DNA from: a virus
Lineage: Duplodnaviria > Heunggongvirae > Uroviricota > Caudoviricetes
IMG/VR virus record: IMGVR_UViG_2925891887_000003
DNA length: 55,008 nucleotides
Strand: one strand, 5' to 3'
Numbering within the stretch: the stretch's first letter is position 1; each line of letters begins with the position of its first letter. Of the stretch, positions 1-44,324 are shown piece by piece. The notes beneath the pieces were generated by a model, which saw only the letters and a list, made by a program, of their open reading frames with translations, made no database searches and was not told the origin of the DNA. The position numbers were made by a program, and so were the translations under genes.

Positions 1-2334
1 CTATTTTGTGATTTCGAGACTGCACTTCGGTAGCCAGTCAGCATTGCATTCTTCTCTAAGTGCCAGATTGGTCTGCATTCCCTGATTGGTCCGCCGCTTC
101 TCGTACTGCAGCCCATACTCTTTCAGCATTAACGGCAACCCCTTGCCAAACATGGTCAGACTGAGCGTGTTTTTATAGCCGTTGGCTTCCATGTAGACCA
201 GATAAGCATGGTAAAGGTATGTACGAGGCTGACGTGGGACAATATTGGCGTTCCCCATAAACATGCCGTTGGTGTCAGGTAATGCCTCAAGGTAGCCACA
301 AAAATCAAATGCTGGATCAGCATCACGCTTGATGGTGAGAGCCTCATCAGAATTCTGCTGCGACTGAAGCAATGTTCTGGCGCTCATCGGATCGCTGAAA
401 CGCTGCATGAGCTGACGAACAATCACAGCCAGTTCTCGTGCAATTTTATCTTTCAGCTGCGGATCGCGTTCTTCCGGTGCTATCTGCTCAGGAAAATGCA
501 GAATAACTCTCCTGCGGGACACACCACCACTGCGATCAGTGAAGCGCATAGGATTATTATTTACGGCCAGGATAACCGCCGGAATATGTGTTGAATAAGC
601 ATTCTGATATTTGGGGTCCACAGATACTGCATCGCCACCAGTTATAGCCTTAAGCCCGGCGCCGTCGCCGCTCCACTTCTCCTGATCAGGCAGGCGAATA
701 AGAGAAAAACCTATCAGAGCCGCACGTTCTCGCGGGGACTCCAGCGTTTCAATGGTCGCAGAGGTGGCGTTATCCTCTCCAGCAAGCATGGTCGCAATTT
801 CAGCCAGAATACTTTTGCCACTTCCACCAGGGCCAGTCACTTCCAGAAAGAGCTGCCAGTCATAGCGGTTCGCCAGCACCATAAATAACGCTGCAAGAAT
901 AATGTCGCGCTTTGCTGGCTTGTGTCCGGCGGCCCGGTCCAGCCAACGCCAGAATGCCGGGGCATGAGTTTCAAGCGTTTCCCCTTTTACCGGTGGCGTG
1001 AAATCGACTTCACACACGGTACGCAGCCAGTTCTCTTTACAGTGCGGACTAAAAAGCCCTGTTCGCGTATCGAGGACGCCATTACGAAAACCAATCAGAT
1101 GACGTGCCGGATTTTGCTGCTGCGGAACAATTAACTTTAATGTTTCCACCAATGAGGCAATTTTTCCTGAGGAAAACGGTGCACCGAGGCGCTGGAAAAG
1201 GGCTGCGACATCTCGGGCAAAATCTGACTGAGAAATCACTTTCCACGCTCCAGACTCGTAGCGGGATAAAAGCTGTCCGTTCGGATCAACCGCCAGTGCA
1301 TCCCTGTAATGCTCCCGAACCCTCTGAGCTTTTTCGCTGACACTCATCGCTGTGAATTCTGCTTCACTCATTGTGTCGAAAGGACTGGCGTTATGTGGCT
1401 TCAAAGCCTCAAGAATTGCCTTCCGGGTGGATTCCTCTCCGTAATGGGCAAGCGCATCATTCCAGTCACCAAAAACCGGTGGCAGCACAATGTCACACTG
1501 ACACGCTTTTGCAGCAGCTTCAGCCCTGTTCTGGCCTGAACCATTCAGATCTCGGTCCGCTGCAATAATTAGCTGATACCCCGGATACTTGTTATGGGCA
1601 ACGCTGGCCAGAGAAAGAAAGTTGACCGACGAAAATGCCACCATGACGGCTTCTCCTGTCAGATGATGAATGGTAAGCGCCGTTGCGTAACCTTCTGCAA
1701 TCCAAACCCTTCTTACAGAACTCCCGCCCCCTTCTATCAGATGATAGGCCTCCTTAACCTGACCTCCTTTAAGAAAACACTTGCTACCATTGCCACTGAT
1801 AAGCTGAATATTCACCAGCTCCCCGTCAGCGTTATAGAGCGGGACGATCAAATCACCGGGGCGGAACATCACCCCACCGGTTTTATGAGCTGAAGTCAGC
1901 TCATGGCAAACATGCTCCGGGAAACCTTTATGTGTAAGATAAGTGTTTCCGGCAGATTCACGCGAGGCTTGCAGCAGTCGCGCGGCAAGTGCTGCCGCTG
2001 CATCTTTCCCGCTATCGGTATCGGCGGTTAACGTCCTGACTTCGGAATTAGCTATAAACAGACCATGTGTCAGTCCATGTATCCTGTCAGCTGCTTCACT
2101 GATATCCACATTCAGTGCCCTGGTGACAAGCGCTAAACCATCCCCGGCTCCGCACTGATTGCAGAACCATGTTCCGCGTCCTTCCTGATCGTCGAAGCGA
2201 AAACGATCTTTACCGCCACAGACCGGACAAGGCTGATGGCGATTTTTCAATATATTCACGCCCAGCGCTGGCAGAATCTGAGCCCAGTGACCGCGGGCAG
2301 CCTTCACGGCCTGACTGACTTTCATTCCTGACAT
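1..2334 (-). CDS. P4 alpha-like bifunctional primase/helicase (satellite replication protein)
   Basis: ORF 1..2385; likely start at internal ATG 2334 (MSGMKVSQ...), giving 777 aa. N-terminal zinc ribbon CPVCGGKDRF...WFCNQCG typical of phage primases; Walker A GPGGSGKS in the C-terminal helicase part. Stop codon at 1-3. Confidence 0.85.
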   Translation of the reverse strand: MSGMKVSQAVKAARGHWAQILPALGVNILKNRHQPCPVCGGKDRFRFDDQEGRGTWFCNQCGAGDGLALVTRALNVDISEAADRIHGLTHGLFIANSEVRTLTADTDSGKDAAAALAARLLQASRESAGNTYLTHKGFPEHVCHELTSAHKTGGVMFRPGDLIVPLYNADGELVNIQLISGNGSKCFLKGGQVKEAYHLIEGGGSSVRRVWIAEGYATALTIHHLTGEAVMVAFSSVNFLSLASVAHNKYPGYQLIIAADRDLNGSGQNRAEAAAKACQCDIVLPPVFGDWNDALAHYGEESTRKAILEALKPHNASPFDTMSEAEFTAMSVSEKAQRVREHYRDALAVDPNGQLLSRYESGAWKVISQSDFARDVAALFQRLGAPFSSGKIASLVETLKLIVPQQQNPARHLIGFRNGVLDTRTGLFSPHCKENWLRTVCEVDFTPPVKGETLETHAPAFWRWLDRAAGHKPAKRDIILAALFMVLANRYDWQLFLEVTGPGGSGKSILAEIATMLAGEDNATSATIETLESPRERAALIGFSLIRLPDQEKWSGDGAGLKAITGGDAVSVDPKYQNAYSTHIPAVILAVNNNPMRFTDRSGGVSRRRVILHFPEQIAPEERDPQLKDKIARELAVIVRQLMQRFSDPMSARTLLQSQQNSDEALTIKRDADPAFDFCGYLEALPDTNGMFMGNANIVPRQPRTYLYHAYLVYMEANGYKNTLSLTMFGKGLPLMLKEYGLQYEKRRTNQGMQTNLALREECNADWLPKCSLEITK

Positions 2335-2348
2335 GATGCAGTTCTCCC

Positions 2349-2672
2349 TCAGTGTAAAACCGGCTTTTTGATGTGACGGACGCATAACTCATCCATTACG
2401 GCTATCCCGAGCTGGGAGAGTGCGGGACAGGACATTAGAGGGCCGGATTCCATCAGGTCTGAAAGCAGGGCGCAGGCGATTTCCATGCCTTTTGTTTGCC
2501 CGTGCTGTCGCAGATAAAATCCTTCAAGCTCACGGGCAATAGCGGTTTCAATTTCATCCAGAGTGAGCTGCAGGTGGCGGTTTTGCTGATAGCAGGCACT
2601 CAACCAGGCGCAGGCTACCGCGCGGCGATACAACGCTACCCGAAGTGAAAGGGAAAGAGTGCGTGATTTCAT
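2349..2672 (-). CDS. hypothetical protein, immediately upstream of alpha in the leftward operon
   Basis: 107-aa ORF, 14 nt upstream of the alpha start, same strand; ATGA overlap with the next ORF upstream. No recognisable motif. Confidence 0.4.
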
Positions 2673-2893
2673 TGCACCACCTCCATGTTCATCAGGTCAT
2701 CCTGGCAACGCTGTACCACGCCATCAAGCTGCTCTGTCATCAGATAAATCAGGGAAACCAGTTGCTCACATTGAGCACTGGCAGGTTTTTCGTAGCAATC
2801 CTGAAGAACAGCCATTCCGGTGACAAACTCCCCCACGTTACGAAGATGCTTCAGGCGGACAATATCGTCATAAGAGATTGCGGCGTGATTCAT
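2669..2893 (-). CDS. hypothetical small protein (position of P4 epsilon-like genes)
   Basis: ORF 2669..2932; internal ATG at 2893 ([11 protein letters not shown]...) preferred. Translationally coupled to the downstream ORF. Function inferred only from position. Confidence 0.3.
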
Positions 2894-3287
2894 CACATCA
2901 CCTCCCGGACAGGCAGGCGAGCAGCAAGGCAAAGCACATATTCATGGACCAGTGAAAGACGTGCATGAGACTCATCGCTGGCGACAATACGCAGCATACT
3001 GATACGTGGTTTACGTTCTGCACGACGAACGGCGGCAAAAACAAATATAAATTGAGGATGTGATGGGGTGAGGATCGTAGCCATAAGGGCAATCTCCAAT
3101 AAGTAGCGGTTATTGCCACCACCAGAGCTGCAAATCTCATGGGTGATGGCCCGGACGGGGTTTGCAGTACCGGCCTTATTGGAAACCGGCCAGCCCGAAG
3201 GCTGCCCCGCCCGGACCACCATTATCTGACAGGAGCCACGGTGTAAGCACCACAGCCCGAAAAATAGGTGTGCCTGAGCAACGACAT

Positions 3288-3309
3288 AAAAAAACACGCT
3301 CGACGCGTG
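3288..3309 (-). terminator. intrinsic terminator downstream of the AlpA/Vis-like gene
   Basis: On the minus strand: 5-bp GC stem (CACGC/GCGTG, loop GTCGA) followed by U7 (plus-strand A-run 3288-3294). Confidence 0.45.
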
Positions 3310-3437
3310 CTGTGTCGCCAATAAGTTACACGGGCTGCAAATCCCGGCTGCCGATTTTGCGGCAGCGGAAAAACTATAACTGGAAAGGTTGCCAGGACGC
3401 AAGCCACAAAAAAAGAGATGAGACTGCAAAGCCAGAT

Positions 3438-3698
3438 TCACGCATGGACTCCTTGCTCGCGGGCTGCAATTCGCGCCGCCATCCATGCACTGACCTCCGA
3501 CTGTACCCAGGCAACATTTTTTCCACCCAGGGAGATCTGCTGCGGGAAGGCATCACGGCTGATAAGGTCGTAGATGGTTGAACGGGATAGCCCGCAAAGG
3601 TGCATCACTTCAGGTAATCGTATGAAGCGCTCCTGCTGAGTCGGAACCGGGAGCACCGGAGCAGCTGGTGCCTGGGTGGAAACGGAAATAGTATGCAT
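3438..3698 (-). CDS. AlpA/Vis-family (MerR-like) phage transcriptional regulator
   Basis: 86 aa; [49 protein letters not shown] matches the AlpA-family pattern (RLP.V....G.SRST.Y......FP....LG...V.W..SEV..W). First gene of the leftward operon, divergent from the late operon. Confidence 0.75.
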
Positions 3699-4232
3699 CT
3701 CGCTACCTCTCTAATATGTTTTCAGTAGTCCGGAGAATTCCATCCGGATTCAGGTAGTTCCTTATTATGTTTATATAAGCGGCTCGCGCATGCTTTATTT
3801 AATTAGAGTGAAATATTGCTTTCTCAAAAAATAAAACAGCTAAAAACCGGATAAAACGGACAAAAACAAATCATTCCTTCATGGAATATAATAAGGAACT
3901 TAAAGAATAAAAAAGTCTATTACACCAGGCAGGATCGCAGCTCAAGCCTGAACCAGACCATATCATTCCGGGCGTTACATCATAAGGACAAAGACGGCAC
4001 CGGAATAATAAAAGGGCCAAAAAACATCCATAAAAAACAGTTCATCATATGTATTAATTAAATTAACGACTAAAAAATTAAATTACCCGCATCCTTCCGC
4101 ATTTATCCGGATGTGTTTAATGAGCATCAGACAGATTCATTTTTATGGATATTTTCTTGAAATGCAACCGAGTGTAGGGAGGTTAAGTTTTGAATTTTCA
4201 AACAGACATAAGACACATTTTATACTGTATAT

Positions 4233-4450
4233 TGAATAGTGTTGAATACGTGTGAATAGTGGTGATGAGTAAAAATCTAGTAATAAACTGAAATAAAGAT
4301 CGCGACTCATATGAAAAACAAATATAAGTTTAAATTTATCTCTGTGAACAGTCATGAACAGTAGATGACCACTTTGATTTAAACACTACACTCCTTAATT
4401 CCATGTATTTACTATTCTTTTATAAAAGTGAACAGTAGTGAATAGTATGT
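4233..4450. repeat. cluster of at least 7 TGAAYAGT-type short repeats (candidate iterons or operator sites)
   Basis: tgaatagtg, tgaatacgtg, tgaatagtgg (4233-4260); gtgaacagtc, atgaacagtag (4345-4365); gtgaacagtag, gtgaatagtat (4429-4450). Confidence 0.5.
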
Positions 4451-4511
4451 ATTAAAGGAAGGGTGAAGATCAGACATGACACCTTTCTCTGGCTAGCCAG
4501 AACAAGGTCAT

Positions 4512-4529
4512 TGTTCAGTCACTGGCACA
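4512..4529 (+). promoter_or_regulatory. TGT-N12-ACA dyad, candidate Ogr/Delta activator site of the late promoter
   Basis: tgt tcagtcactggc aca, ~75-90 bp upstream of the Sid-like start codon; P2/P4 late promoters carry a TGT-N12-ACA element near -55. Confidence 0.4.
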
Positions 4530-4601
4530 ATCCTCATCGGTAGTGCGCTTGTATGGGCACCGGCACAATTGACTCAACAACAAAACACTACCGGAGCAGC
4601 C

Positions 4602-5354
4602 ATGACAACTGTTAACCAGATCCCTGATGTAAACATTACACCTTCCCTCCCGCCGAAAATTCGCGAAGCGGTAGAAAAAGTTAAAGCAGCAAAAGCTGTC
4701 TGGCAGGAAGAACGGCGAAAACAAACTGAAGCCGCTGCAATGACTGAAACTATCCGTAAACGTCAGGAAGATACAAAAACGGAGACGCAGGCGCTTAATG
4801 ATGAATGGCGAAACCTGTTTCGTGAGAATCAGGGGAATATGACGCCACGAATGAAAAAACTGCGGGCAGAAATCGCCCTCGGACGCGAAACACTGGATGA
4901 GTTCGAAGATTTGCTGGCAGCTCAGGCCGCAGAAAATGAATTCCTGCCATGGAAAACTGCGGATGCTGCAAACCGCTACATCAGCGAACATAATCGCCTG
5001 ATTGAAACTCATGCAGTGTGGCTCTGGAATGAGTTTATGAAGGAACACGGCCAGAAACTTATTCAGATCCTTGGACTGCTGAAAATGACTCTGGGCCGAA
5101 GCGCATCTTCTGTTATCGGTGTAGTTCATACCGTAAACGACCCCGAAAGTGTGCTGAAGCAATTTATCAGCGAGCAACTCACCACTCCGGCACTGTCCTG
5201 TAACGTATCTTCAACGGATGATATTGCCCTGCCGGGGATCAGCATTTATGCGGACGATAAAGCCATACAGGATGCCAGACAATCACCCAGCCCTGCAGCG
5301 CGTTCCCGGATGCTTAAACAGCGTGACATGGTTAAAGGGGGCGAGAAGGAATGA
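4602..5354 (+). CDS. P4 late-operon protein, possibly Sid-like capsid size determination protein
   Basis: ORF 4569..5354 (TTG); ATG at 4602 with GGAG upstream preferred (250 aa). Predicted helical and charged; first gene of the operon ending in Psu-like and Ogr/Delta genes. Sid assignment is positional only. Confidence 0.4.
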   Translation: MTTVNQIPDVNITPSLPPKIREAVEKVKAAKAVWQEERRKQTEAAAMTETIRKRQEDTKTETQALNDEWRNLFRENQGNMTPRMKKLRAEIALGRETLDEFEDLLAAQAAENEFLPWKTADAANRYISEHNRLIETHAVWLWNEFMKEHGQKLIQILGLLKMTLGRSASSVIGVVHTVNDPESVLKQFISEQLTTPALSCNVSSTDDIALPGISIYADDKAIQDARQSPSPAARSRMLKQRDMVKGGEKE

Positions 5355-5905
5355 ATACCGGAACCATTACTAAGGAAGCTCTCAACGATTACCGCGCGGC
5401 GATAAAAAGCTGGCTGACACTACGTAATGTGCAAAGTACCAGCCAGCTTCGTCTGGCGGCTTTGCTGGATACTGAAGAAAAACCCGCAGCATATGCCAGC
5501 CAACTTGAGGATCTTCGTGAGCATCTTGTACTCCTCGAATGGCAGATTAACTGTGCCGCCCGGGATGGTCTTTATGCTCACCAGATTGTGCTGGAAAGCT
5601 GTGTTACAAGCGCAACTGAAAACTTCATGAGCGAGCATGGTGATGCACTCACTGACGCTCTGGCTCCTTTTCTTTGCGCACCATACGGGCTTGAGGCGGC
5701 AATGAAAATATTACGAACCGCTGTAGCCCGACAAACGGAAGTCCGTACTCCGGTAATTTCAGCAGCATATAAGAGCATTATCGACGAAACCGGATTAACG
5801 GTGGATGCATCAATGCGCGCTGATGCTTCAGCCAGTTTCACCCCGGCACAACATAAAGTTTTCCTGGCCCGCCTTAACCGACTTAATGAAAAAGGAGTGT
5901 GCTGA
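5351..5905 (+). CDS. Psu-like (polarity suppression / capsid decoration) protein
   Basis: 184 aa; ATGA overlap with the upstream gene. Segments ALTDALAPFL and SFTPAQHKVF resemble what I recall of P4 Psu. Moderate confidence. Confidence 0.55.
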   Translation: MNTGTITKEALNDYRAAIKSWLTLRNVQSTSQLRLAALLDTEEKPAAYASQLEDLREHLVLLEWQINCAARDGLYAHQIVLESCVTSATENFMSEHGDALTDALAPFLCAPYGLEAAMKILRTAVARQTEVRTPVISAAYKSIIDETGLTVDASMRADASASFTPAQHKVFLARLNRLNEKGVC

Positions 5906-5906
5906 T

Positions 5907-6179
5907 ATGGCCCTGAAGTGTCCTGAATGTGGCGCGGTCGCTCACGCTAGAACCAGCGCCTATGAAGCTCCGTCGGTTAAACGCTCATGGTATCAGTGCC
6001 AGAGTCTGGAATGTTCCTGCACATTTACCGCACTGGAAAGCGTGGATACGATAATTATGAAGCCTCGGCGCAATGAACAGGCATCAGACAAAGCAAAAAT
6101 GCCGGAAAAACAACAGCAAACTCTCAATCGCTATGGCTCCGCGTCAAAGCTGTCAAACCGTCAGCAAATTCCTGTCTGA
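5907..6179 (+). CDS. Ogr/Delta-family zinc-finger late transcription activator
   Basis: MALKCPECGAVAHARTSAYEAPSVKRSWYQCQSLECSCTFTALESV matches the Ogr/Delta C-x2-C...C-x4-C finger pattern; AAAGGAG RBS 9 nt upstream of the ATG. Confidence 0.85.
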   Translation: MALKCPECGAVAHARTSAYEAPSVKRSWYQCQSLECSCTFTALESVDTIIMKPRRNEQASDKAKMPEKQQQTLNRYGSASKLSNRQQIPV

Positions 6180-6270
6180 TTAGCAAAATACGCCCACGAA
6201 GTCTCGGTCCAGTACCGGGATTTTTTACGCTTTTTCCCTGGCTGGCCTGAGAGCGTATGAGTGCATATCT

Positions 6271-6309
6271 ATGGCGCATGAAAACGCATGAGTCTCATGC
6301 GCCATTTTT
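6271..6309 (+). terminator. intrinsic terminator of the late operon
   Basis: Perfect 11-bp inverted repeat atggcgcatga / tcatgcgccat followed by TTTTT. Confidence 0.6.
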
Positions 6310-6383
6310 GACGCGAAAGCCCTTGTGTGGTGGCTTCTGAGACGATTTAAGGGGTGCATGAAAACCAGTCTGTTAAGCGAAGC

Positions 6384-6407
6384 GGGCAGGCGGGCGGGGC
6401 TGCGCAC
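6384..6407. other. candidate cos (cohesive end) site of the P4-like element
   Basis: GC-rich gggcaggcgggcggggctgcgcac resembles my recollection of the P2/P4 cohesive end (GGCGAGGCGGGGAAAGCAC); sits where cos is expected, between the late operon and the cargo/int region. Not verified by alignment. Confidence 0.3.
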
Positions 6408-6451
6408 GCTGAGGGGAAGTATTGAGATCGGTGAGGGGAAATCTGATTCAT

Positions 6452-6473
6452 TAAAAAGGCCGCTTTCGCGGCC
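6452..6473 (-). terminator. intrinsic terminator ending the reverse-transcriptase operon
   Basis: Minus strand: GGCCGC-GAAA-GCGGCC hairpin followed by UUUUU, ~120 nt downstream of the RT-B stop. Confidence 0.6.
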
Positions 6474-6590
6474 TGTTTAGCTAAAAGGCAATAGTGTGTC
6501 TAAATCGGTCCATCCTCAAAACGTATCGCGAATATCTTTCGGATGAACATTCAAAAGCCGATCTTCCGGTATCTGCTTCAGGTCGAAACC

Positions 6591-8630
6591 TTAGGCATCG
6601 CAACCCTTTAACGAAATTAAAATACTACTATTCATATGCTGTTCGCAACTCTTTTTTATAAAGAACGTGCTCAAGATCAGCATCTCCAGACCAGTTAAAA
6701 AGATTACATTATTTTTTAAAGAATCAATTTCAGAATCAATTACTGCATTCGTAAATCTTTTTTGACCTGTATTTGCTTCGACATATGTTCTATAAATTAT
6801 TCTCTTATGCTTAACTGTAAGATATGGGCACGTCATCATATCAAGGAATAGCATAAATGTTTCAGTGTCTTTTTTTATATCGTTCCGACCACTTATCAAA
6901 CTCTGTATAGCAAGGACAATATCTTCTTTCATTTTTAGATAGAGAACATCATCGCCTATATAGTGTAACATGCTGCATATAGAAAAATATTCTAAATCGT
7001 AAAAACACTCATTCTCACTAATACCCAACAAATCCTTAAATTCATCTGGATTGAGTTTATACTGCTCCCCCAAACCTTTCATACATATAAGTAAGTTAGA
7101 TAACTCCACTGGCCTCTCATGAATATTACCCATGCTTTTCATGCACATAAGAAGCTCATCAAAAGTATTCTTTTTTATAACTTCACTAATGTCTGAAGCT
7201 TGCTTATTAGCAAATGAATTTATTTCCAAAATAACTTGGCTAATTATGTATGTCTGTCGGACTCGAAAATCCATAGCATAAATAAAAAAAATCACCTCAT
7301 TGAATATTGAGAAGAATTTATAAGTTATATCTTCTTTTCCTGACAGATCGAACATCCTCAACAGCCTAATTACTTTGAAAAACTTACTCTTAATCGCACT
7401 TATTAAGTATGAGCTAACAAGATCAAATGTGGTATTGTTTTTTCTAACCGCAATTTTGATTCGTTTTATAAATTTGTCCGCGTGTAGCTTTTTATTCCAT
7501 ACACCTTTCAATGGAAAAAGGTTATTCATATTTTCAGGCTGAATTTTGACGTCTGGATTTAAATTAACCATAGCTGTTAACTCATCCAACTTCTCAGTAT
7601 GGATTAACGATCCATATAAATCCTCAATGATTTCTGCAATATCATTTTTAGCCATCGTGGCTCCAGTCACGAATGGCCTCTCGATAAATTCCTTTTTAGA
7701 TTCATTCAAATAAAGCTTATATTTTTCGAGTTCATTTGCCAGTACAAATTCTATTAGCTTAAATGTTTCATCATCATCCGCAAATATAAAATAATCATCA
7801 ACGTAACGTCTTATAGCATAGCTCTTATCTTTAACTATGCCTGGCTCAAGATTCAAATGAGACTCAACATTCAAGTCAACGCGCTGTAATATAATCTCCG
7901 CAAATATCCTTGAAAATTCAGGCCCAATTATTATGCCATTTGTTTCACCATAATTGGCATCTTGAAAAAGCTTATCCAAACAACCTTCAAAGCTGTTATA
8001 AGTTCTATTAACCTTAGAGAATTCTTTAGATTTTACAGCCCATGAAACGCTGTGTGTATATATATGACTAAAACACTTAGCAATATCAAGCTTTAAAAGT
8101 TTCCTAAACTTCCTTTCCAATCTATGAAATTCATATGACTCATAAAACTTATAGATGAAAGGATATTTCTTATATGAAAAATGGGAAGATGAGGAAGTTT
8201 CTTGGGAATCAAAGCCATGATTATGAAATTGTACAAGACCATCTTTTAGATTTATTCTACTTTTTAAGAAGTCCTTTTCGTAATAATAGCTCCCTATTTT
8301 GCTAGGATAACGTAGCGAAAACGGACTTTTTGTACACATATGAACCATCAAATGTTCATACTTATCATAAAAATCACAGATTCTTAACTGCGTTGAAGGA
8401 TGTATAATGCCAAGGCTTCGAGAACTCGCCAGCCCCTTTTTTATTTTATAGGAGTAAGGGATGGTATAAGAATCCAGCTTAAGGCCTTCTGAAAATGTTC
8501 CGGGTAAAACTTTATTTTCAGAAATTAACTTATAGAAACCTTCGTTAGAAAAAAGGATAGGGACTTCATATGGTAAAATATCCGTGAGAAGTACTCTTTT
8601 ATAATCACTCTTCGATATTTTAATTTTCAT
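6591..8630 (-). CDS. reverse transcriptase, large (RT-B; UG/Abi-class defence-type RT with ~390-aa C-terminal extension)
   Basis: 679 aa, ~30% GC. RT motifs: LKLDIAKCFSHIYTHSV (motif A with Asp), NGIIIGPEFSRIFAEIILQRVD (motif B), RRYVDDYFIFADD (motif C, YVDD). GGTGA RBS; start 3 nt after the RT-A stop. Confidence 0.85.
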   Translation of the reverse strand: MKIKISKSDYKRVLLTDILPYEVPILFSNEGFYKLISENKVLPGTFSEGLKLDSYTIPYSYKIKKGLASSRSLGIIHPSTQLRICDFYDKYEHLMVHMCTKSPFSLRYPSKIGSYYYEKDFLKSRINLKDGLVQFHNHGFDSQETSSSSHFSYKKYPFIYKFYESYEFHRLERKFRKLLKLDIAKCFSHIYTHSVSWAVKSKEFSKVNRTYNSFEGCLDKLFQDANYGETNGIIIGPEFSRIFAEIILQRVDLNVESHLNLEPGIVKDKSYAIRRYVDDYFIFADDDETFKLIEFVLANELEKYKLYLNESKKEFIERPFVTGATMAKNDIAEIIEDLYGSLIHTEKLDELTAMVNLNPDVKIQPENMNNLFPLKGVWNKKLHADKFIKRIKIAVRKNNTTFDLVSSYLISAIKSKFFKVIRLLRMFDLSGKEDITYKFFSIFNEVIFFIYAMDFRVRQTYIISQVILEINSFANKQASDISEVIKKNTFDELLMCMKSMGNIHERPVELSNLLICMKGLGEQYKLNPDEFKDLLGISENECFYDLEYFSICSMLHYIGDDVLYLKMKEDIVLAIQSLISGRNDIKKDTETFMLFLDMMTCPYLTVKHKRIIYRTYVEANTGQKRFTNAVIDSEIDSLKNNVIFLTGLEMLILSTFFIKKSCEQHMNSSILISLKGCDA

Positions 8631-8633
8631 GAA

Positions 8634-9830
8634 TCACCAAACCTTATTTATTTTAATAATATCTTCCCGTTTAAAAGAAGACAGTAGCCGTTTTTCAAAA
8701 CCAGCCAAAAATGAGTATTTTTTAGGCGCAGTTAATAAGTTGTGACCTGCTGCTAAAATTTTTCTCCCCACCTCGCCCTTTGAAGAAAATAGCATCCTAT
8801 TCTTAAATATATCAAGTTCCTTGAGCTGTGTTTTATCAGTTATATGTTGATAATTGTAATAAATTCCACTATATAAAGCATCAGTTTTATTACTATTGGA
8901 GTTTACTAATATATTACCAGTTAAATACTTTATTCTTTTCTTCAAGAGTTCTGCATCAGAATTATTTGAGTAATCTTTTACCGCAAGTGCAATCCTTCTT
9001 TTTATTTTCTTTATTTTCTCCTCCGAAATTCTGATCACAACATGACGACGCTGATTTTTTAATCCATGGTGTATAATAAATGAATATCCCAAAAACTCAA
9101 TTTCAGAATGTTTAGTTGAAGTGTCCTCTATGGTATACTCACTGCACTTTCTTTCATTTAAATGTAATCCATTTGGTAAAATCCTTGAAAAATAATTTTT
9201 ATAATCTGGTATTTTATAGAATGAAAAAACTATGATATCATCCACATATCTTGAAGCATAAAAAACTTCAGGCAGCCTCGCCAACTCAGCATCAAATTCC
9301 TCCATAAATATTTCTGATAAAGTCGCACTTAATCCCATACCACGGGGAAGTCCGTTATTTGCAGAGAAAGCGTTATGTTTAAAAAGACCATTGATAAATT
9401 TTTTAGTATTATGAGAAATAATCGGGTTATTATTAATTCTTTGGAAAACGATATTTTTATCTATTGATTCATAAAAACTCTTAATATCCAGCCTGTAAAT
9501 ATAATAATTTACAGGCTCACTTAACACTGTATTTACTTTTTTTATGATGTCATGTCTGTTGTTTTGTTTAACACTATACACACGCTTAATGTTATCATTT
9601 ATTTTCCTGGCGACAAGTACATCCATAAAATCTTTAAATATATACACATTTTTGTTGTTAATTCTTGAATTTGAGATCGAACCAAATGAGTATGTTTCAA
9701 TTGAGCCATTAACTTTATCAGCTATATATTTTTTATATTCAGCTGAATTCCTACCAATTTTGTATCTTTTTGGATCGGTTTTTTTTAAAAGCTTAATTAA
9801 GTTCGAAACGGAAAATGACTGGTTTAACAT
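8634..9830 (-). CDS. reverse transcriptase, small (RT-A; UG/Abi-class defence-type RT)
   Basis: ORF track starts at GTG 9863 (overlapping int); ATG at 9830 with AAGGGG RBS preferred (398 aa). Motifs: YRLDIKSFYESID (A), GLPRGMGLSATLSEIFMEEFD (B), YASRYVDDIIVFS (C, YVDD). AT-rich. Confidence 0.85.
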   Translation of the reverse strand: MLNQSFSVSNLIKLLKKTDPKRYKIGRNSAEYKKYIADKVNGSIETYSFGSISNSRINNKNVYIFKDFMDVLVARKINDNIKRVYSVKQNNRHDIIKKVNTVLSEPVNYYIYRLDIKSFYESIDKNIVFQRINNNPIISHNTKKFINGLFKHNAFSANNGLPRGMGLSATLSEIFMEEFDAELARLPEVFYASRYVDDIIVFSFYKIPDYKNYFSRILPNGLHLNERKCSEYTIEDTSTKHSEIEFLGYSFIIHHGLKNQRRHVVIRISEEKIKKIKRRIALAVKDYSNNSDAELLKKRIKYLTGNILVNSNSNKTDALYSGIYYNYQHITDKTQLKELDIFKNRMLFSSKGEVGRKILAAGHNLLTAPKKYSFLAGFEKRLLSSFKREDIIKINKVW

Positions 9831-9831
9831 A

Positions 9832-11010
9832 TTATAACCCCTTTTTTTTGCGAAGATAATCACTGTACCATTGCATCATCTTCTGCCTTTCCATAAGGTA
9901 TATGGCATGATTATAAGTTCCTCTTATATTATTTCTATCAACATGAGCTAATTGGACTTCAATAAATGCTGATTGAAAACCTTCTTCATGCAAAATTGTT
10001 GATAACATATGTCTGAACCCGTGACCAGTGAGTCGGCCTTCGTAACCGATACGCTTGATAACTTGATTTATGCTAGCTTCGCTCATCGGTTTGTTCGGAT
10101 CGTTCCGTCCTGGAAAAACATAACGATAGTTCCCTGTCATTATCTTGAGTTCATGGAGTAAATCTAACGCTTGGGTCGACAATGGCACAAGATGCGGCCT
10201 GCGCATTTTCATCCTTTCAGCAGGAATTTCCCAAATAGCGTTATCCAGATCAAATTCTTGCCATAATGCCGCGCGTAATTCGATGGTTCTCACGCCCGTA
10301 ATCATCAGTAATTTCGTTGCTATCTGGACAAGCTTACTCCCGGTGTAACTCTCTAAGGCACGCAGAAATTCGGGTATCTCATCAGCTTTTAGGAACGGGA
10401 AATGATTGGATTGGTGCACTTCGAGAGCGCTGGAAAGATCTGCCGCAGGATTGTACTCCGCTCTACCCGTTGCAATTGCGTAGCGAAACACTTCAGAGCA
10501 ACGCTGACGCACTTTCCGCATTTTCTCCAACGCACCACGTTTCTCAATTTTACGCAGTACGTTCAGCAGCTCTAGCGGTTTAATCTCACTCACAGGCCTT
10601 GTTCCAACATAAGGAAAAATGTCGTTCTTAAACGCTTCCATGATGTCTGATGCATATCCTGCCGACCATTTAGCAGATTTAAGTTGATGCCACTCTCTGG
10701 CTATCTTTTCGAAGGCGTTCTCTGACTCTGCTTGCAGAGCCAGCTTTTGCTCTTTTCGAACATCACTAGGGTTCTTTCCTTCTGCCACAAGTTTTCGAGC
10801 TTCATCACGACGGGAACGAGCATCGGCAAGAGTGATCGTTGGGTAAACGCCAAGCGAGATCATCTTGGGTTTACCGGCATAGCGATAGCGGAACCGCCAG
10901 CTCTTGCTTCCATTAGGTTCTATAAGCAATGACAAGCCTTGCCCATCCCCAAGCGTATAGGGTTTATCTTCAGGCTTAGCGCGGCGAATCTGCATATCGT
11001 TTAAAGGCAT
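9832..11010 (-). CDS. int: P4-type tyrosine integrase
   Basis: 392 aa; N-terminus MPLNDMQIRRAKPEDKPYTLGDGQGLSL... typical of P4-family integrases; C-terminal HGFRHM...RGTYNHAIY catalytic region. Adjacent to the duplicated thrW 3' segment. Confidence 0.9.
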   Translation of the reverse strand: MPLNDMQIRRAKPEDKPYTLGDGQGLSLLIEPNGSKSWRFRYRYAGKPKMISLGVYPTITLADARSRRDEARKLVAEGKNPSDVRKEQKLALQAESENAFEKIAREWHQLKSAKWSAGYASDIMEAFKNDIFPYVGTRPVSEIKPLELLNVLRKIEKRGALEKMRKVRQRCSEVFRYAIATGRAEYNPAADLSSALEVHQSNHFPFLKADEIPEFLRALESYTGSKLVQIATKLLMITGVRTIELRAALWQEFDLDNAIWEIPAERMKMRRPHLVPLSTQALDLLHELKIMTGNYRYVFPGRNDPNKPMSEASINQVIKRIGYEGRLTGHGFRHMLSTILHEEGFQSAFIEVQLAHVDRNNIRGTYNHAIYLMERQKMMQWYSDYLRKKKGL

Positions 11011-11011
11011 G

Positions 11012-17485: not shown

Positions 17486-18355
<870 letters not shown>

Positions 18356-18905
18356 GTATTCAATTGATAAGATTAAACCGCAGCACGTTATTGCATACAA
18401 CGTGTCTGCGGTTTCAACTCCGCCGGCCCCCCCCAATCATGATTGGACAGCACTTGCAAAAAAAGAAATTAGTATTCTCAGCAGGACACCGGTCAGATAG
18501 TGCGGCAGATCAATGTCTGGTTAATATTGATGACCGCTGCCCGCTGATTCTATTGCCGAAACTGTGCGGGAAAAGATGTGGCAAGATATTGTTGGTAAAA
18601 AATTCTCAGTGACTTTATGCCAGCAAATCAGTTTGCCTGGCATCCAGTATCATGTGCGGTGGATAATGTCAAAAAACATGGGGAGTCGATTAAACAGGTA
18701 TAATCGTTAAAAACCTTCAAACTCCAGGCAAAACCCTATTTCATAGAACATGTACTTTCATCTGGTATACATGAACGAATTATGACTGCGTTAGTAAAAT
18801 TACCTTGGTTAAATTACAGGCAGAGATATATGTTCCAGTCCAGTGCTTTTTCGTTTACAATATTTATCTTTCATTATCACTTGACTTTATTAAAAGAGGT
18901 TCGTT

Positions 18906-38928: not shown

Positions 38929-39426
38929 TTATGAATGCAGCCCGGGTATTGTGAGCTGCAGCTGGGTAGCCAGGTTACTAATTTCAGCCATCAGAACTGG
39001 CTTGGTGTAACGCCAAGCAGCCAGTCCCTGCCCGCAAAAGCTCGCCATATCTTTCTTCTGATCAAACTCGTGACACTTCATATTGAGCTGTGCACTTAAG
39101 CTGCTGCGATGCTGAAGCTCTCCGGTGAAGTAGTCATCGAGGACTTTATAGGCTGCATATTTAAATTCAGGGTTTAGCCATGCTGCGTAATCATAAGCAA
39201 CGAACTTTCCTCCATAAGTTCCACCGTGCACACCGCGTTCCGTAAAAACCACAGATTCGTGGTTTTTCTCCAGCTCAGCCAAGAACTCTTTGGTCTGCTT
39301 GTTTCGCAGGTAGTGGTACGGCGATTCAGATTCACTTTTACCACTAGCTTTCCACATGTCAGTGAGGCAGATCATTCCTGATTCATCAACACGGATCGGT
39401 GTATTAAAAAGCGTGATTGCTTTCAT
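38929..39426 (-). CDS. KilA-N domain protein
   Basis: ORF 38929..39609; internal ATG at 39426 (MKAITLFNTPIRV...) with AAGG RBS preferred; ...GTYGGKFVAYDYAAWLNPEFKYAAYKVL matches the KilA-N core. Confidence 0.55.
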   Translation of the reverse strand: MKAITLFNTPIRVDESGMICLTDMWKASGKSESESPYHYLRNKQTKEFLAELEKNHESVVFTERGVHGGTYGGKFVAYDYAAWLNPEFKYAAYKVLDDYFTGELQHRSSLSAQLNMKCHEFDQKKDMASFCGQGLAAWRYTKPVLMAEISNLATQLQLTIPGLHS

Positions 39427-39617
39427 AGCGCTTTTACCTTTTAGAAAATTGAGCCTGCCCCACAGAAAAGCCGCCCCGAGATGGTCGCCACCATATACGG
39501 CAGTTCTCAGGCTCAACTTTCTGAAAGGCTCGGGTGATAATGTGCGCGTGGGGTGCGCAGTGAAATTCAGATGTGAAAAAGCCCCGCTAAAAGCGAGGCC
39601 ATAAATCACTTGATATC

Positions 39618-39992
39618 TTACTGAGGACGTTGAAGAAATCCGTACTGAGCGAGTATCAGAACAATGTCATAAGACCCTTGCCTGTCTTTATAGCAAGTTT
39701 TATCAACTAACTCAGCTTTGCTGATTCCGGGCAAATCAAGAATCAGATTCGCAACTTCAATTGCCCTTTGGTACAACTTACCGACCTTTCTCTCCCCATG
39801 CTGTGGTTTTACATTCTTCAGATAACCGCTATCCGTCAGAGCGAGAAACGTTGCCCTTGGGCATCCTTTCTTTCTTGCCGATTCGCTTTCTGTAACCTCA
39901 GCGACAGCAGCCTCCCATGCATCACGAGGGGATAATGAATTATCAGCAACCAAATAATAAGCAATTAAAGCAGCACGCGCGTATTGAGACAT
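39618..39992 (-). CDS. hypothetical protein downstream of the lysis cassette
   Basis: ORF 39618..40043; ATG at 39992 (MSQYARAALIAYYLV...) preferred. No motif recognised. Confidence 0.4.
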   Translation of the reverse strand: MSQYARAALIAYYLVADNSLSPRDAWEAAVAEVTESESARKKGCPRATFLALTDSGYLKNVKPQHGERKVGKLYQRAIEVANLILDLPGISKAELVDKTCYKDRQGSYDIVLILAQYGFLQRPQ

Positions 39993-40030
39993 AATGCATC
40001 CATATACAAAAATCTTATGGTAAGACTTTT

Positions 40031-40498
40031 CTAATATGAACACTGTGATCTCACATACTCTTGCAGGCCATTCAATTGGTTAGTTATGGTTTCAATGCGC
40101 TCTCTGAGAACGAAATAATCCCGTTGAGCGGTGTCAGTAAGTCTGGGGCTGGAGCCATCATCCACGCCGGAGGCGGCGGTGATTTTATGCATGTCGGGAC
40201 AGACTGCTTTGACGCGCAGCCACTTACGGCCAGCAGAAACATCAGCACGGAGACTTTCGATAGTCGCGTTAGCATCAGCAAGCTCCTTTGTATATCTGGC
40301 GTCAAGTTCTGCTACGTCACGTTGACGCTTCTGCATATCAGAGAGCGTCGCCATAGCCGAATCTAATGCCATTGCGTTTTCGTCGCGCTGCTTTTTGTAT
40401 TCAATGGCTTTATTGTGGTAATGATTCGCTGAAAAGATAAAAGAACCAATGACAGTAACGAAGAAAGCAGCGATAACCAACTTATAGCTCAACTTCAT
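40031..40498 (-). CDS. Rz-like i-spanin
   Basis: 155 aa; N-terminal TM helix then a coiled-coil periplasmic domain; follows the endolysin gene. Confidence 0.8.
   Translation of the reverse strand: MKLSYKLVIAAFFVTVIGSFIFSANHYHNKAIEYKKQRDENAMALDSAMATLSDMQKRQRDVAELDARYTKELADANATIESLRADVSAGRKWLRVKAVCPDMHKITAASGVDDGSSPRLTDTAQRDYFVLRERIETITNQLNGLQEYVRSQCSY
40084..40275 (-). CDS. Rz1-like o-spanin lipoprotein (embedded in Rz, +1 frame)
   Basis: Embedded ORF with lipobox LLAVSGC and a Pro-rich tail (SPPPPAW). Confidence 0.65.
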   Translation of the reverse strand: MLTRLSKVSVLMFLLAVSGCASKQSVPTCIKSPPPPAWMMAPAPDLLTPLNGIISFSESALKP

Positions 40499-40961: not shown

Positions 40962-41288
40962 TTACTCCTTAGAGCCACCAAATTTGTTACCGATTACTCG
41001 CATTGCAGCCCCACGAATAGCATCGACACCGATCAGCCCCACCCCACCACCAATGGCAACAGATAGTGATTTAGGCCATCCGACATACTCAAGAGCGGAT
41101 GCAAAAGTCAGCGTCAGAGCGCCACAGAGTAGAATTTCGAGTGTTTTTCGCTTCCAACCGCCACCACCGCCAAAATAGGCGATACGTAAACCAGCCATAA
41201 CAATCGACATAATCACTGCGCCCAGCGGTGTGTCTCCACGCCACCAGCTCTGGACCAACTCCAGCCAGGTATTTGGGTTATGAGGCAT
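40962..41288 (-). CDS. holin
   Basis: 108 aa, hydrophobic TM segments and a charged C-terminus; first gene of the lysis cassette. Confidence 0.75.
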   Translation of the reverse strand: MPHNPNTWLELVQSWWRGDTPLGAVIMSIVMAGLRIAYFGGGGGWKRKTLEILLCGALTLTFASALEYVGWPKSLSVAIGGGVGLIGVDAIRGAAMRVIGNKFGGSKE

Positions 41289-41425: not shown

Positions 41426-41462
41426 AGCCCAGAAACGACAAAACCCGCTCGACGGCGGGTTT
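41426..41462 (-). terminator. tR'-like intrinsic terminator downstream of the presumed late promoter
   Basis: Minus strand: CCCGC-CGUCGA-GCGGG hairpin followed by UUUUGUCGUUUCU, ~150 nt upstream of the holin start. Confidence 0.4.
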
Positions 41463-41585
41463 AAGCTGTGTGGCGAAGTAACCACTCTTAACAGATTACA
41501 AGAATTTTTGCGGACCGCGTTAATGATTTTTAATCCCAAAGTCGTATTATTCGTTTTTTACTGTAGGAGTTAATAGGTTTATATT

Positions 41586-42917
41586 ATGTTAGATACACTA
41601 TCTTTCACTGAACGTGACGAGTTCCAACGAAGAAACATCGCTGAAAATATCATCAAGTTGCTAAAACCAGAGGCAGACATTTCACCACTGGTAATAGACG
41701 GCGCATGGGGAACAGGGAAAACAGAATTTAGTATCAAACTGAAAAATCTCATTATTGAGCAAGAAACTGAATCTAAAGTTGTTTATATTGATGCCTTTAA
41801 AGGGGATCATGCAGAATCTCCATTACTTCTCATAACCTCTGCAATTGCCAGCATTTTGCCTGAGGAAGAAAAACAACACTTCATTAAGCGATCTCTTCCT
41901 GCAATTCGCTTTGGTTTAAAAACGGTACTAAAAGCTGGTGCAGGTTGGTTTTTACGACAGGAGGCTAGTGAAGTTGCCGAAGAATTCCAAGATGCGATGA
42001 AGAAAGCAAGCAATGCAGCAATAGATGGGACTATTGAAAATTTGCTTGAAGACCATATGGACTCAGAGAAAAACATAAATTCACTTAAATCCTGCATCGA
42101 AAGCATATCAAAAAATCAAAAAATCGTAATTATAATTGATGAATTAGACCGATGTAAGCCGAGTTTTTCAACAAATGTCATTGAAACAATAAAACACATT
42201 TTTGACATCAATAATGTCTTTTTTATTTTAGTTACAAACACAGAACAATTAAAAGCATCTATAAATCATATTTATGGTTATAGCATTAACTCACAAAAGT
42301 ATCTTGACAAGTTTATAAAATATACCATCACGCTTCCAGATACATGTTTGATAAATGGTCACAACGTATGTAAAGCCTCTGTTATATATTGGGATTACCT
42401 TGTAGAAAAAACAAGATTATTGAATAAAATCAATAGATTATCAGGTTGCTTTATCCGTGATTTAATTCAACGAACCAACTTATCATTACGTGAAACACAA
42501 ACATTTTCACGCAATCTTAACATTTTTCAACTGTTAAACGACGATGAGAACAAAAGCAGTGATCCTTTAATAAATATGATCTTTGTCGTAGCTGCCTTCA
42601 TACATTGCTTTGGTAACAAGGAAAAACTAAAACAAGAAATTACCGCTGAATCTATATCTTATTTAGCAGACCTGCTTAACATAAAAGAAATACCTTATTC
42701 TTATGAGAGAAGATCGCAAATCCCTGAAATATCCATTGTATTCTTCGGAATAATTAAAGACAGTATTACTCTTAATGAGCGATTTGCCCCTAAAAGTGAT
42801 GAAGAACTTAAAAAATTCACAAATGTTTATACTGATTATGAACACATAAATTTTTGGAGTACTACACCCAGAGAGTTATTGATAAAATATATTAATCAAA
42901 TGTCATTCATCCAGTAA
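41586..42917 (+). CDS. KAP-family P-loop NTPase (moron)
   Basis: 443 aa, AT-rich, opposite strand to its neighbours; Walker A IDGAWGTGKTEF and Walker B IIIDELDRC, the pattern of KAP NTPases. Confidence 0.75.
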   Translation: MLDTLSFTERDEFQRRNIAENIIKLLKPEADISPLVIDGAWGTGKTEFSIKLKNLIIEQETESKVVYIDAFKGDHAESPLLLITSAIASILPEEEKQHFIKRSLPAIRFGLKTVLKAGAGWFLRQEASEVAEEFQDAMKKASNAAIDGTIENLLEDHMDSEKNINSLKSCIESISKNQKIVIIIDELDRCKPSFSTNVIETIKHIFDINNVFFILVTNTEQLKASINHIYGYSINSQKYLDKFIKYTITLPDTCLINGHNVCKASVIYWDYLVEKTRLLNKINRLSGCFIRDLIQRTNLSLRETQTFSRNLNIFQLLNDDENKSSDPLINMIFVVAAFIHCFGNKEKLKQEITAESISYLADLLNIKEIPYSYERRSQIPEISIVFFGIIKDSITLNERFAPKSDEELKKFTNVYTDYEHINFWSTTPRELLIKYINQMSFIQ

Positions 42918-42947
42918 ATAATACGCCCCATGCAGGGGCGTATTATT
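42917..42947. other. 13-bp perfect inverted repeat between convergent KAP NTPase and Q genes
   Basis: aataatacgcccc atgca ggggcgtattatt; no clear U-tract on either strand. Confidence 0.5.
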
Positions 42948-43311
42948 AAACGTCCAAATCTAATGTTAGATCTAGCATGGAAAGGCAGCCATCAATAAAT
43001 CCTTCGGCTAGCTGTATTTCTATACGTATCAATTTCTCATCTTTTTTACGAGCCTTGGCGAGCTTTCTTTTAGAGATACCGTATAGGTAATGGGCAACAA
43101 GAAGCGAATGTTCGTCCGGCCTTTTTTGCTTTAGACGAGCAAGACAACCTTCAATAATTAAGGCATCACTATCCGAACAAGCCAAGCGTTTCTTGCTTGT
43201 ATAGGGAAGAAGTCCCTTAAACCCAGCGGCTATAGGTGAATAATCAACGCCTGAACTATCACTCGCCGCCCATGCCCCCCAACGCTCCAGAACCATCTGA
43301 ATATCACGCAT
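42946..43311 (-). CDS. Q: late-gene antiterminator Q
   Basis: N-terminus MRDIQMVLERWGAWAA... as in lambdoid Q proteins of the phage 21/933W type; upstream of the late promoter region and lysis genes. Confidence 0.8.
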   Translation of the reverse strand: MRDIQMVLERWGAWAASDSSGVDYSPIAAGFKGLLPYTSKKRLACSDSDALIIEGCLARLKQKRPDEHSLLVAHYLYGISKRKLAKARKKDEKLIRIEIQLAEGFIDGCLSMLDLTLDLDV

Positions 43312-43328
43312 CAACTTTCTCCACCAAA

Positions 43329-44324
43329 TCAGGCTAGCACACCAATTGCCAACACACGGTCGATAAAACGAAATATCAGCTCCAGCTGGGAGCCATACTT
43401 CTCTTCAAATGCCACGGTATCCGCATGCAGCTCGTCGTGATGCTTTCTGCACAAAGGCAACACAAAGAGGTCATGCGCTTTTGTACCCATCCCACCCTGA
43501 CCGTGGCCTATCAAGTGGTGGGGATCATCAGCAGGCTTTCCACAACATGCACACGGCTGTGTCTTAACCCAGCGCGTGTACTTTTCATTAACCCAGCGGC
43601 GACGTTTTGGGCGTAACATAAAAGACTCCGGCGACTCCGGATCCACTTTCAGCGTCAGCACCTTTTTCGCCTTATCCTGGATGATGCTGGTGGCAGGAAC
43701 CGAAGGCACAAGGTCACTTTCCCGGGTGACAGACGGCACAACAGGCTTTGGTAATCTCAGTGCCTTACGGGCTGCACTTTCCGGTAAGGCATCCGCCAGG
43801 TCATTACGAATCAGCCACCAGCACAGTTCCGGCATTGTCACAACGTGACTATCATCAAAACCGAGATCCCGACGCACAACAGACAACACCCAGCGGGCAC
43901 AGTTATCCGTTGCCATTGATTCCAGCCGTTCCGTGAACTGATCGCGCAGCTGGTTATCACAGTGCCAGCACAGACGGATTGCGCCCGGAGCGTGTCGCAT
44001 TGTGGTCATGTTCTCGCTATGCCAGTCGGAATGAGGCCACTGGCAGCCTTTTTCACGAAGTAACCAGCTTTCAAGACATTCCACGCCACCAGCACGACGG
44101 ATCACTGCCTCATTGCGGAACACGGCCCGAACAGCAGGATCATCCGCCAGCGGTTGTGATGCCGCGGGAACGGCACCACTGGCGAAAGATGAATAACGTT
44201 CCGGCTCAGGCTCCAGCAGTACACGCCCCTGCATAAACAGGGGCATCAGCTCTGAACCTGGTCTGAACAATACGATCCCCATACGCGGGGCTATTTCAGG
44301 GGTCAGTAGTGCTCTCACGGTCAC
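43329..44324 (-). CDS. DUF968-like protein with C-terminal Cys/His (HNH-like) cluster
   Basis: 331 aa, GTG start; C-terminal CxxCG...HHLIGH...C..HH pattern; common in the nin region of lambdoid prophages. Confidence 0.55.
   Translation of the reverse strand: MTVRALLTPEIAPRMGIVLFRPGSELMPLFMQGRVLLEPEPERYSSFASGAVPAASQPLADDPAVRAVFRNEAVIRRAGGVECLESWLLREKGCQWPHSDWHSENMTTMRHAPGAIRLCWHCDNQLRDQFTERLESMATDNCARWVLSVVRRDLGFDDSHVVTMPELCWWLIRNDLADALPESAARKALRLPKPVVPSVTRESDLVPSVPATSIIQDKAKKVLTLKVDPESPESFMLRPKRRRWVNEKYTRWVKTQPCACCGKPADDPHHLIGHGQGGMGTKAHDLFVLPLCRKHHDELHADTVAFEEKYGSQLELIFRFIDRVLAIGVLA

Follow-up and report, generated by a model that had tools for sequence, protein, structure and literature searches.

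NTPases of the KAP family are known to act as phage defenses. EF_KAP and three other single-gene KAP proteins give phage resistance, for which the Walker B motif is needed (PMC12632615), and Reve is a single-gene KAP defense that was taken from a P4-satellite hotspot (PMC13586616). PifA is a further single-gene KAP protein that protects against phages (PMC13001434). The family PDC-S20 is already listed as a computational candidate. Here, we analyze a KAP-family gene in the IMG/VR virus record IMGVR_UViG_2925891887_000003 (Caudoviricetes), a stretch of 55,008 nucleotides that is referred to below as the window. The gene (41586..42917, plus strand, ATG start, 443 residues) lies in antisense between the gene for the late antiterminator Q and a conserved block that probably contains the late promoter PR'. 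We consider it probable that the product is a soluble, single-protein sensor-switch defense that is expressed in the lysogen and is directed against other phages, a predicted activity that we infer from family, genomic context, and selection. The support for this explanation consists of the PDC-S20 and KAP family matches and the N-terminal similarity to PifA and QatA, the presence of homologs as phage cargo in all nine contexts sampled, the hotspot character of the insertion slot, a split in selection along the protein, and the KAP precedents named above.

The first-pass annotation had described an AT-rich gene of 443 residues that is oriented opposite to its neighbors, and this description holds. 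The GC content of the open reading frame (ORF) is 33.0%, as compared to 43.6% for Q, 54.9% for the DUF968 gene, and 48.4% for the whole window, and the flanking phage genes are all on the minus strand. The same annotation had read the product as a KAP-type NTPase with Walker A and Walker B motifs and had proposed searches against Pfam and PADLOC, both of which agree with that reading. The Pfam KAP_NTPase profile (PF07693) gives a strong match along its full length (E 8.9e-71, 239 bits against a cutoff of 20, profile positions 1-292 of 293). Both motifs are present and show no variation in an alignment of 41 homologs, where G39, W41, G42, T43, G44, and K45 are invariant in Walker A and the stretch D185-E-L-D-R-C190 is invariant in Walker B. 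On the matching chromosome of Escherichia coli PC-NDM34, the Prokaryotic Genome Annotation Pipeline (PGAP) also names the gene product a KAP family NTPase. In PADLOC, the protein matches PDC-S20 (model PDLC04956) over its full length, with residues 3-442 aligned to profile positions 4-449 of 450 (E 1.1e-176). Based on this profile match, the gene is a stand-alone member of the PADLOC single-gene candidate family PDC-S20. A match of similar strength was obtained with PHROG 8614 (E 6.8e-189), the function of which is unknown.

To place the gene within its family, homologs were collected in two ways. A word-indexed search returned 2195 matches of ∼440-447 residues across Enterobacterales, and an exhaustive search gave 264 clusters (50% identity, E ≤1e-30), nearly all of which have 430-500 residues, with a length of ∼445 residues being usual. 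The alignment with more distant homologs ends near residue 345. Genomic contexts were then sampled for nine homolog clusters with 42-66% identity, which represent ∼9 genera. In 9/9 of these clusters the gene is cargo in one of two temperate-phage slots, and no conserved partner gene is found across the nine contexts. The first slot is that of the window, in which the gene is convergent with a PF06530-type Q; it was seen in lambdoid prophages of Citrobacter, Klebsiella, Cronobacter, and Enterobacter sp. R4-368. The second slot is a home of the family that the first-pass annotation had missed. It is found in 186-like prophages, where the gene is located between the genes for the CI repressor and the integrase and on the same strand as both, and its carriers are E. 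coli (two clusters), Yersinia, Serratia, and Rahnella. Lysogenic transcription in phage 186 covers cI and int, and the cI-int slot is therefore independent evidence for expression of the KAP family in the lysogen. It should be noted that the 186-like prophages of Yersinia, Serratia, and Rahnella have an extra ORF of 160-309 residues, with no Pfam match, between cI and the KAP gene (5494-5976 in loci L014/L015, ∼5461-5970 in L103/L104, and 5075-6004 in L106). This ORF is absent from the E. coli versions and could be other cargo or a lineage-specific partner. Among deposited phage genomes, we found no close homolog of the KAP protein; the only related proteins there are 25-29% identical and come from Vibrio and Fusobacterium phages and from metagenome-derived phage records (Helicobacter sp. 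and human faecal).

Of 5426 complete E. coli genomes, 49 carry the window allele itself, in each case in the chromosome and with 95.6-100% DNA identity, and enterotoxigenic E. coli (ETEC) H10407 is among them (ETEC_RS01535). The ORF is intact in 49/49 of these genomes, and the ratio of nonsynonymous to synonymous substitution rates (dN/dS) among E. coli alleles is ∼0.2 overall, as calculated from small substitution counts. For both reasons, the gene is a maintained one and not a chance ORF. A decaying or selfish passenger without current function would fit the low GC content and the patchy occurrence of the gene, as well as the IS903B insertion beside it in a single strain, E. coli SZQ1. The intact ORFs and the dN/dS argue against such a passenger, in particular the values of 0.03-0.12 in the NTPase core, as do the invariant catalytic motifs and the uniform length of the 264 clusters. 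We therefore regard this explanation as highly improbable. In the SZQ1 record (NZ_CP173996.1), the KAP gene is flanked by annotations for an IS903B (IS5-like) transposase and for two Q genes and is itself named merely a "P-loop NTPase fold protein."

Strong purifying selection acts on the NTPase core, while the helical C-terminal domain evolves fast. When dN/dS among the E. coli alleles is calculated by region, again with small counts, residues 1-255 give 0.03-0.12 and residues 256-443 give 0.31-0.49, and the entropy of the alignment columns is 1.0-1.3 bits in the core versus 2.1-2.75 bits in the C-terminal region. An AlphaFold2 model of the protein (mean predicted local distance difference test score (pLDDT) of 80.5, predicted template modeling score of 0.78) consists of a P-loop core, a long, amphipathic helical insert that separates Walker A from Walker B, and an all-helical C-terminal domain for which the pLDDT is mostly 80-94. 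A search of the PDB by sequence gave no match. By structure, the nearest solved folds are the defense ATPases RdrA and BrxC. Lastly, synonymous divergence was compared for the same genome pairs and was found to be 0.09-0.12 in the KAP gene versus 0.34-0.44 in the adjacent Q gene, which is a three- to four-fold difference. Since the KAP gene is far less diverged than its neighbor, this comparison suggests that the cassette was recently exchanged between diverged phage backgrounds.

The gene is surrounded by a prophage with lambdoid regulation, an HK97-type head, and a contractile tail, which is related to the Shigella phages SfII and SfIV. The order of its genes on the minus strand is DUF968/HNH, Q (PF06530), the KAP gene in antisense, holin, lysozyme, and Rz. 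The first-pass annotation had read the gene as a moron that separates Q from the late promoter, and comparison with related phages bears this out, with the PR' label being putative. In the Shiga toxin 2 (Stx2) phage 1720a-02, the Q stop codon directly abuts 92 bp with 89% identity to window 41531..41440. In the window, the same block is shifted 1414 bp away from Q by a cassette with a GC content of 33% versus 44-55% in the flanks, which comprises the KAP ORF, the 54 bp upstream of it, and a hairpin with a 13-bp stem. Thus, flanks that are adjacent in related phages, an atypical base composition, and an own 3' hairpin, three features of a moron, are seen, a further one, an own promoter, is represented by a weak candidate, and the description of the cassette as a moron between Q and the putative late-promoter block is supported.

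Both ends of the cassette have features that may be regulatory. The hairpin spans the two convergent stop codons and has folding free energies (dG) of -20.8 and -21.5 kcal/mol on the two strands (z ∼-6). It is kept, with compensatory substitutions, in the Citrobacter, Klebsiella, and Cronobacter loci and is not followed by a long T-run. The hairpin is likely a bidirectional terminator or an insulator. At the other end, the conserved block contains CGCGGTCCGC and TGTTAAGAGTGGTTAC, which are invariant across loci. Because of its position, its conservation among phages with a PF06530 Q, and the late genes downstream of it, the block is probably the late promoter, the Q-utilization site, and the terminator tR'. 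Mapping of the PR' hexamers by eye across loci was ambiguous and gave no confident assignment within the block, and Rfam returned no structured RNA match in the flanks of the KAP gene. On the far side of Q, a DUF968/HNHc_6 gene (window 43329-44324) directly precedes the PF06530 Q in every lambdoid locus examined, which includes loci from E. coli, Citrobacter, Klebsiella, Cronobacter, and Enterobacter; the 1720a-02 record misnames this gene as a second "antitermination protein Q." The coordinates of the features at the locus are collected in Table 1.

Table 1. Coordinates, strands, and supporting evidence for features of the KAP gene and its surroundings in the window.
Feature	Coordinates	Strand	Evidence
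Lambda-family holin gene	40962-41288	-	Pfam, annotation
Conserved block, adjoins Q in empty-site phages; putative PR', Q-utilization site, and tR'	41440..41531	-	Comparison with 1720a-02
Intrinsic-terminator-like hairpin followed by a T-run, putative tR'	41441..41462	-	dG -13.3 kcal/mol
Candidate weak sigma-70 promoter: -35 ATGATT, 16 nt, -10 TATTAT	41523..41550	+	Read from sequence; speculative
Cargo cassette, 1414 bp, 33% GC, between the Q stop and the conserved block	41532..42945	.	Comparison with the empty site and other cargos
KAP-family P-loop NTPase gene, 443 aa	41586..42917	+	PGAP "KAP family NTPase" WP_085674740.1
KAP_NTPase domain, residues 15-317	41628..42536	+	Pfam; conserved core ∼residues 1-255
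Walker A GAWGTGKT, residues 39-46, K45	41700-41723	+	Motif in sequence
Walker B IIIDELDR, residues 182-189, D185 and E186	42129-42152	+	Motif in sequence
Fast-evolving alpha-helical C-terminal region, residues 256-443	42351..42914	+	Entropy, dN/dS, AlphaFold2 model
13-bp-stem hairpin over both convergent stop codons (KAP, Q)	42917..42947	.	Folding energy, conservation
Late antiterminator Q gene (PF06530), convergent with the KAP gene	42946..43314	-	Pfam E 1.8e-52; PGAP

The slot between Q and PR' is a general cargo hotspot, which the first-pass annotation had missed. We surveyed 80 IMG/VR loci that contain relatives of Q (74-100% identity) by measuring the distance from the Q stop codon to the conserved block. 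The slot could be mapped in 75 loci and is occupied in 65 of them (∼87%) and empty in the other 10. The inserts are ∼830-2730 bp long and comprise at least 16 architectures and 24 protein clusters, with the KAP gene being one cargo type (7 loci). All of the slots are low in GC (31-44%), and 96 of the 101 cargo ORFs are antisense to Q. In 62/65 occupied slots, the 70 nt next to the Q stop contain a hairpin of ≤-12 kcal/mol, as compared to 14/65 interior control segments. At the opposite end, the block-proximal cargo ORFs for which the start can be mapped all begin 23-300 nt from the invariant TGCGGACCGCG block.

A number of the cargos are recognizably defense-like. They include a TIR-TM protein (PADLOC, 1.9e-57), an HNH effector-like protein (PDC-M68A, 7.5e-27), a 657-residue ABC ATPase resembling OLD, AriA, and PtuA (AriA, 3.7e-17), an NYN nuclease (PF01936, 1.3e-09), a PDC-S42 protein (3.6e-27), and a protein with an Argonaute-associated REase domain (Aga_REase, 5.7e-29). 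The two cargos found most often do not match any known defense family. One is a 343-residue protein with neither a Pfam nor a PADLOC match (17 loci), and the other is a 153-residue multi-transmembrane protein together with a 340-residue DUF6731-like protein (15 loci), a pair that is also present as orf53/orf54 of phage cdtI. With its conserved flanks, many alternative cargos, and recognizable defense-like genes, the slot has the properties by which a phage defense hotspot is defined for P2 and P4. The first-pass annotation had also linked the KAP moron to defense; the full-length PDC-S20 match and the TIR, HNH, NYN, and OLD-like cargos that occupy the same slot elsewhere point in the same direction.

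One further observation concerns the block-proximal end of the slot. At a fixed distance of 17-18 nt beyond the invariant (T/A)TGCGG of the block (window 41486-41531, L022-L101), a TATnnn hexamer is contributed by many different cargos, such as TATAAT in L070 or TATGAT in L087; the hexamer in the window, TAATCC, is a poor one. A shared -35 element in the block that is combined with cargo-specific -10 elements would fit this pattern, although this suggestion is speculative.

The survey can be extended to a wider proposal, which we put forward tentatively and consider doubtful as a whole. In this proposal, the Q-PR' junction would be an undescribed plug-and-play defense hotspot of lambdoid phages for unrelated antisense, low-GC cargos, and the KAP protein would be a complete sensor-plus-effector. 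The cargos may borrow a -35 element from the TGCGGACCGCG block, and convergent phage transcription on induction may silence them, which would provide the phage with built-in self-immunity. The 343-residue protein and the transmembrane/DUF6731-like pair would then be new defense systems. We found no description of the slot as a defense hotspot in the literature searched, which does not extend to Brenes & Laub 2025 on E. coli prophage defenses, and the novelty of the slot is uncertain.

The proximity to Q could also be taken to indicate that the gene serves the prophage in a role other than defense, such as the tuning of lysogeny or induction (e.g., by antisense action on Q), the countering of satellites, or the alteration of host physiology. 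Consistent with such a role, the KAP gene is convergent with Q, the two stop codons share one hairpin, the KAP-Q adjacency holds down to 44% KAP identity, and a P4-like satellite is present in the same window. However, unrelated 186-like phages, which do not have a PF06530-type Q, also carry the family between cI and int, and the Q-adjacent slot takes at least 16 unrelated cargos; the adjacency therefore reflects the slot and not a KAP-specific link to Q. In addition, the fast evolution of the C-terminal region fits an arms race better than housekeeping regulation. Taken together, we find a non-defense role to be quite improbable.

Our current hypothesis for the mode of action of a lysogen-expressed, single-protein defense is as follows. 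In the lysogen, a weak promoter that belongs to the KAP gene and lies back-to-back with PR' would drive its transcription. The candidate promoter listed in Table 1 is back-to-back with the conserved block, and four genera show partial conservation of its -10 region. The C-terminal domain is the proposed sensor or specificity domain and would recognize a component of an invading phage. Recognition would then switch the NTPase core into a nucleoside triphosphate (NTP)-dependent oligomer, in a manner analogous to that of the ring-forming ATPases RdrA and BrxC and of STAND proteins. Because the protein has no recognizable nuclease, TIR, protease, or membrane effector module, the oligomer probably acts by itself, either by sequestering or remodeling a phage target or by runaway NTP consumption that stalls the infection. 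On induction, transcription that proceeds through Q and into the cassette in antisense could damp KAP expression and thereby spare the lytic cycle of the prophage itself. A protein of this kind would protect the lysogen and hence also the prophage.

Several points weigh against this explanation. Expression of the lambdoid version in the lysogen is something we infer from the orientation of the gene and from the 186-like context, and the candidate promoter is weak. A consensus promoter scan upstream of the gene found no strong site and did not report ATGATT-16-TATTAT; the sites that it did return were no more numerous than those in shuffled DNA, and none had a suitable position relative to the KAP ORF. 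One of these, with a -10 element at 41580-41585, abuts the ATG and was rejected as implausible. The structural matches are modest (template modeling score ∼0.4, 12-15% identity, and 9-15% for RdrA and BrxC), and with no recognizable effector domain the step by which the protein would block the phage or kill the cell is a guess. Finally, we found no experimental test of PDC-S20, the string "PDC-S20" is absent from the literature searched, and "PDC" in PADLOC stands merely for "Phage Defense Candidate."

The hypothesis of a soluble switch also has to be weighed against abortive infection at the membrane in the manner of PifA, in which a phage protein would be sensed and the inner membrane perturbed, leading to leakage of ions or nucleotides and to cell death. 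PifA is reported to have a KAP fold without transmembrane helices and to cause membrane depolarization and nucleotide leakage (PMC13001434). The PADLOC PifA profile (720 positions) aligns residues 7-252 of the KAP protein with positions 13-255 (E 6e-18), and residues 325-343 form a borderline hydrophobic helix with a Kyte-Doolittle 19-residue mean of 1.53. This value is the maximum for the protein, and no segment reaches the usual threshold for a transmembrane helix, which excludes the transmembrane KAP type by hydropathy analysis. Transmembrane helices associated with the P-loop domain belong to the classical picture of KAP proteins but are not strictly defining, since PifA, a founding member, is reported to lack them (PMC13001434). 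Nevertheless, the similarity to PifA ends at residue 252, the PifA profile has 720 positions as compared to the 443 residues of the protein, and EF_KAP, the one KAP defense that was tested for dependence on the multiplicity of infection, was reported not to be abortive (PMC12632615). In view of this evidence, a PifA-like mechanism seems unlikely.

If the explanation of a soluble, single-protein defense is true, the KAP protein would be among the smallest NTPase-based immune proteins, with 443 residues and without a nuclease, TIR, protease, or membrane module, and it would offer a clean system with which to learn how a KAP or STAND-like switch alone stops a phage. The presence of the gene in well-studied strains such as ETEC H10407 may affect phage typing and phage therapy, and the species possibly concerned are E. 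coli, Salmonella, Klebsiella, Citrobacter, and Cronobacter. The Q-PR' slot is the broader and maybe the more valuable result, as it has searchable flanks, is ∼87% occupied, and holds cargos that for the most part have no known function. An anchor of this type is what made the P2/P4 hotspots productive for new defense systems.

Three other regions of the window were also noted. Positions 1-11011 are a P4-like satellite with primase-helicase, Icd-like, two psu-type, ogr/Delta, and integrase genes, and it carries DRT3 (drt3b 6628-8631, drt3a 8635-9831) in the known P4 hotspot beside the integrase. At the tail-fibre end of the prophage, a gene with a LEM-3-like GIY-YIG nuclease domain (17583-18356) and an acyltransferase gene (18907-19974) are on the plus strand, opposite to the structural genes. 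This pair (17583-19974) may be further cargo for O-antigen modification or defense, and the LEM-3-like GIY-YIG gene is also present in a Citrobacter KAP-carrying prophage (L006). Between the lysis cassette and the HNH/terminase genes, window 38929-40043 contains DUF6979 (PHROG 5039) and KilA-N/ORF11CD3 genes, with the KilA-N protein giving a weak match to PADLOC PDC-S22 (2e-09). This region differs from the prophages of M7424 and H10407 and may be a second variable slot.

The locus can be set beside the described systems in terms of both the protein and the slot. With PDC-S20, itself a computational candidate, the gene has in common the full-length match and the single-gene organization. PifA, which is encoded on the F plasmid and excludes phage T7, resembles the KAP protein in that it has a KAP-type NTPase core, acts as a single protein on a mobile element, and has no transmembrane helices; it differs in that its C-terminal domain is unrelated and in that its carrier is a plasmid and not a prophage. 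EF_KAP, from the serine-recombinase-linked KAP fusions, and Reve are likewise single-gene KAP P-loop proteins on mobile elements, and in contrast to the window gene they have been validated. EF_KAP has two N-terminal transmembrane helices and an extra C-terminal region of 322 residues, whereas the window protein has neither. Reve was compared by description only; it was drawn from loci without DefenseFinder or PADLOC annotation and for this reason probably belongs to another KAP subfamily.

Among multi-gene systems, RADAR is defined by an RdrA-like ATPase with the adenosine deaminase RdrB, a combination that is not found at the KAP locus. RdrA has ∼800-850 residues and works with RdrB, and BrxC is one part of the multi-gene BREX, while the window gene has no partner. 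A Qat system is not present either, as the NCBIfam QatA model gives 34 bits against a cutoff of 600 bits, the PADLOC QatA profile matches the NTPase core only (E 8e-12), and the neighbors of the gene are Q and holin instead of QatBCD. The Tmn/YobI proteins are characterized by two transmembrane helices within the P-loop domain (PMC13001434), and no transmembrane segment is predicted here. GiPD474 of Gifsy-1 (PMC12724215) was considered because the nearest homolog cluster is from S. Typhimurium; it is a ParA/MinD-like protein with the Walker A motif GGVGKT at residues 29-34 and is not the KAP protein. KAP is not mentioned in Vassallo 2022, in the 2026 STAND survey, or in the DefensePredictor paper.

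With respect to the slot, the same genome neighborhood in lambdoid phages accommodates stx and other cargo downstream of PR'. The stx genes are on the sense strand there, and induction leads to their expression together with the late genes. The Q-PR' cargos are upstream of the putative PR' and antisense, which implies expression in the lysogen. A parallel can be drawn with the defense hotspots of P2 and P4 (PMC13586616), which also have conserved flanks and interchangeable, low-GC defense cargo with many functions unknown. The Q-PR' slot differs from these in belonging to the lambdoid lineage, in being linked to a PF06530-type Q, and in its site between Q and the putative late promoter, and its cargos differ in being almost uniformly antisense and in ending in a hairpin at the Q stop.

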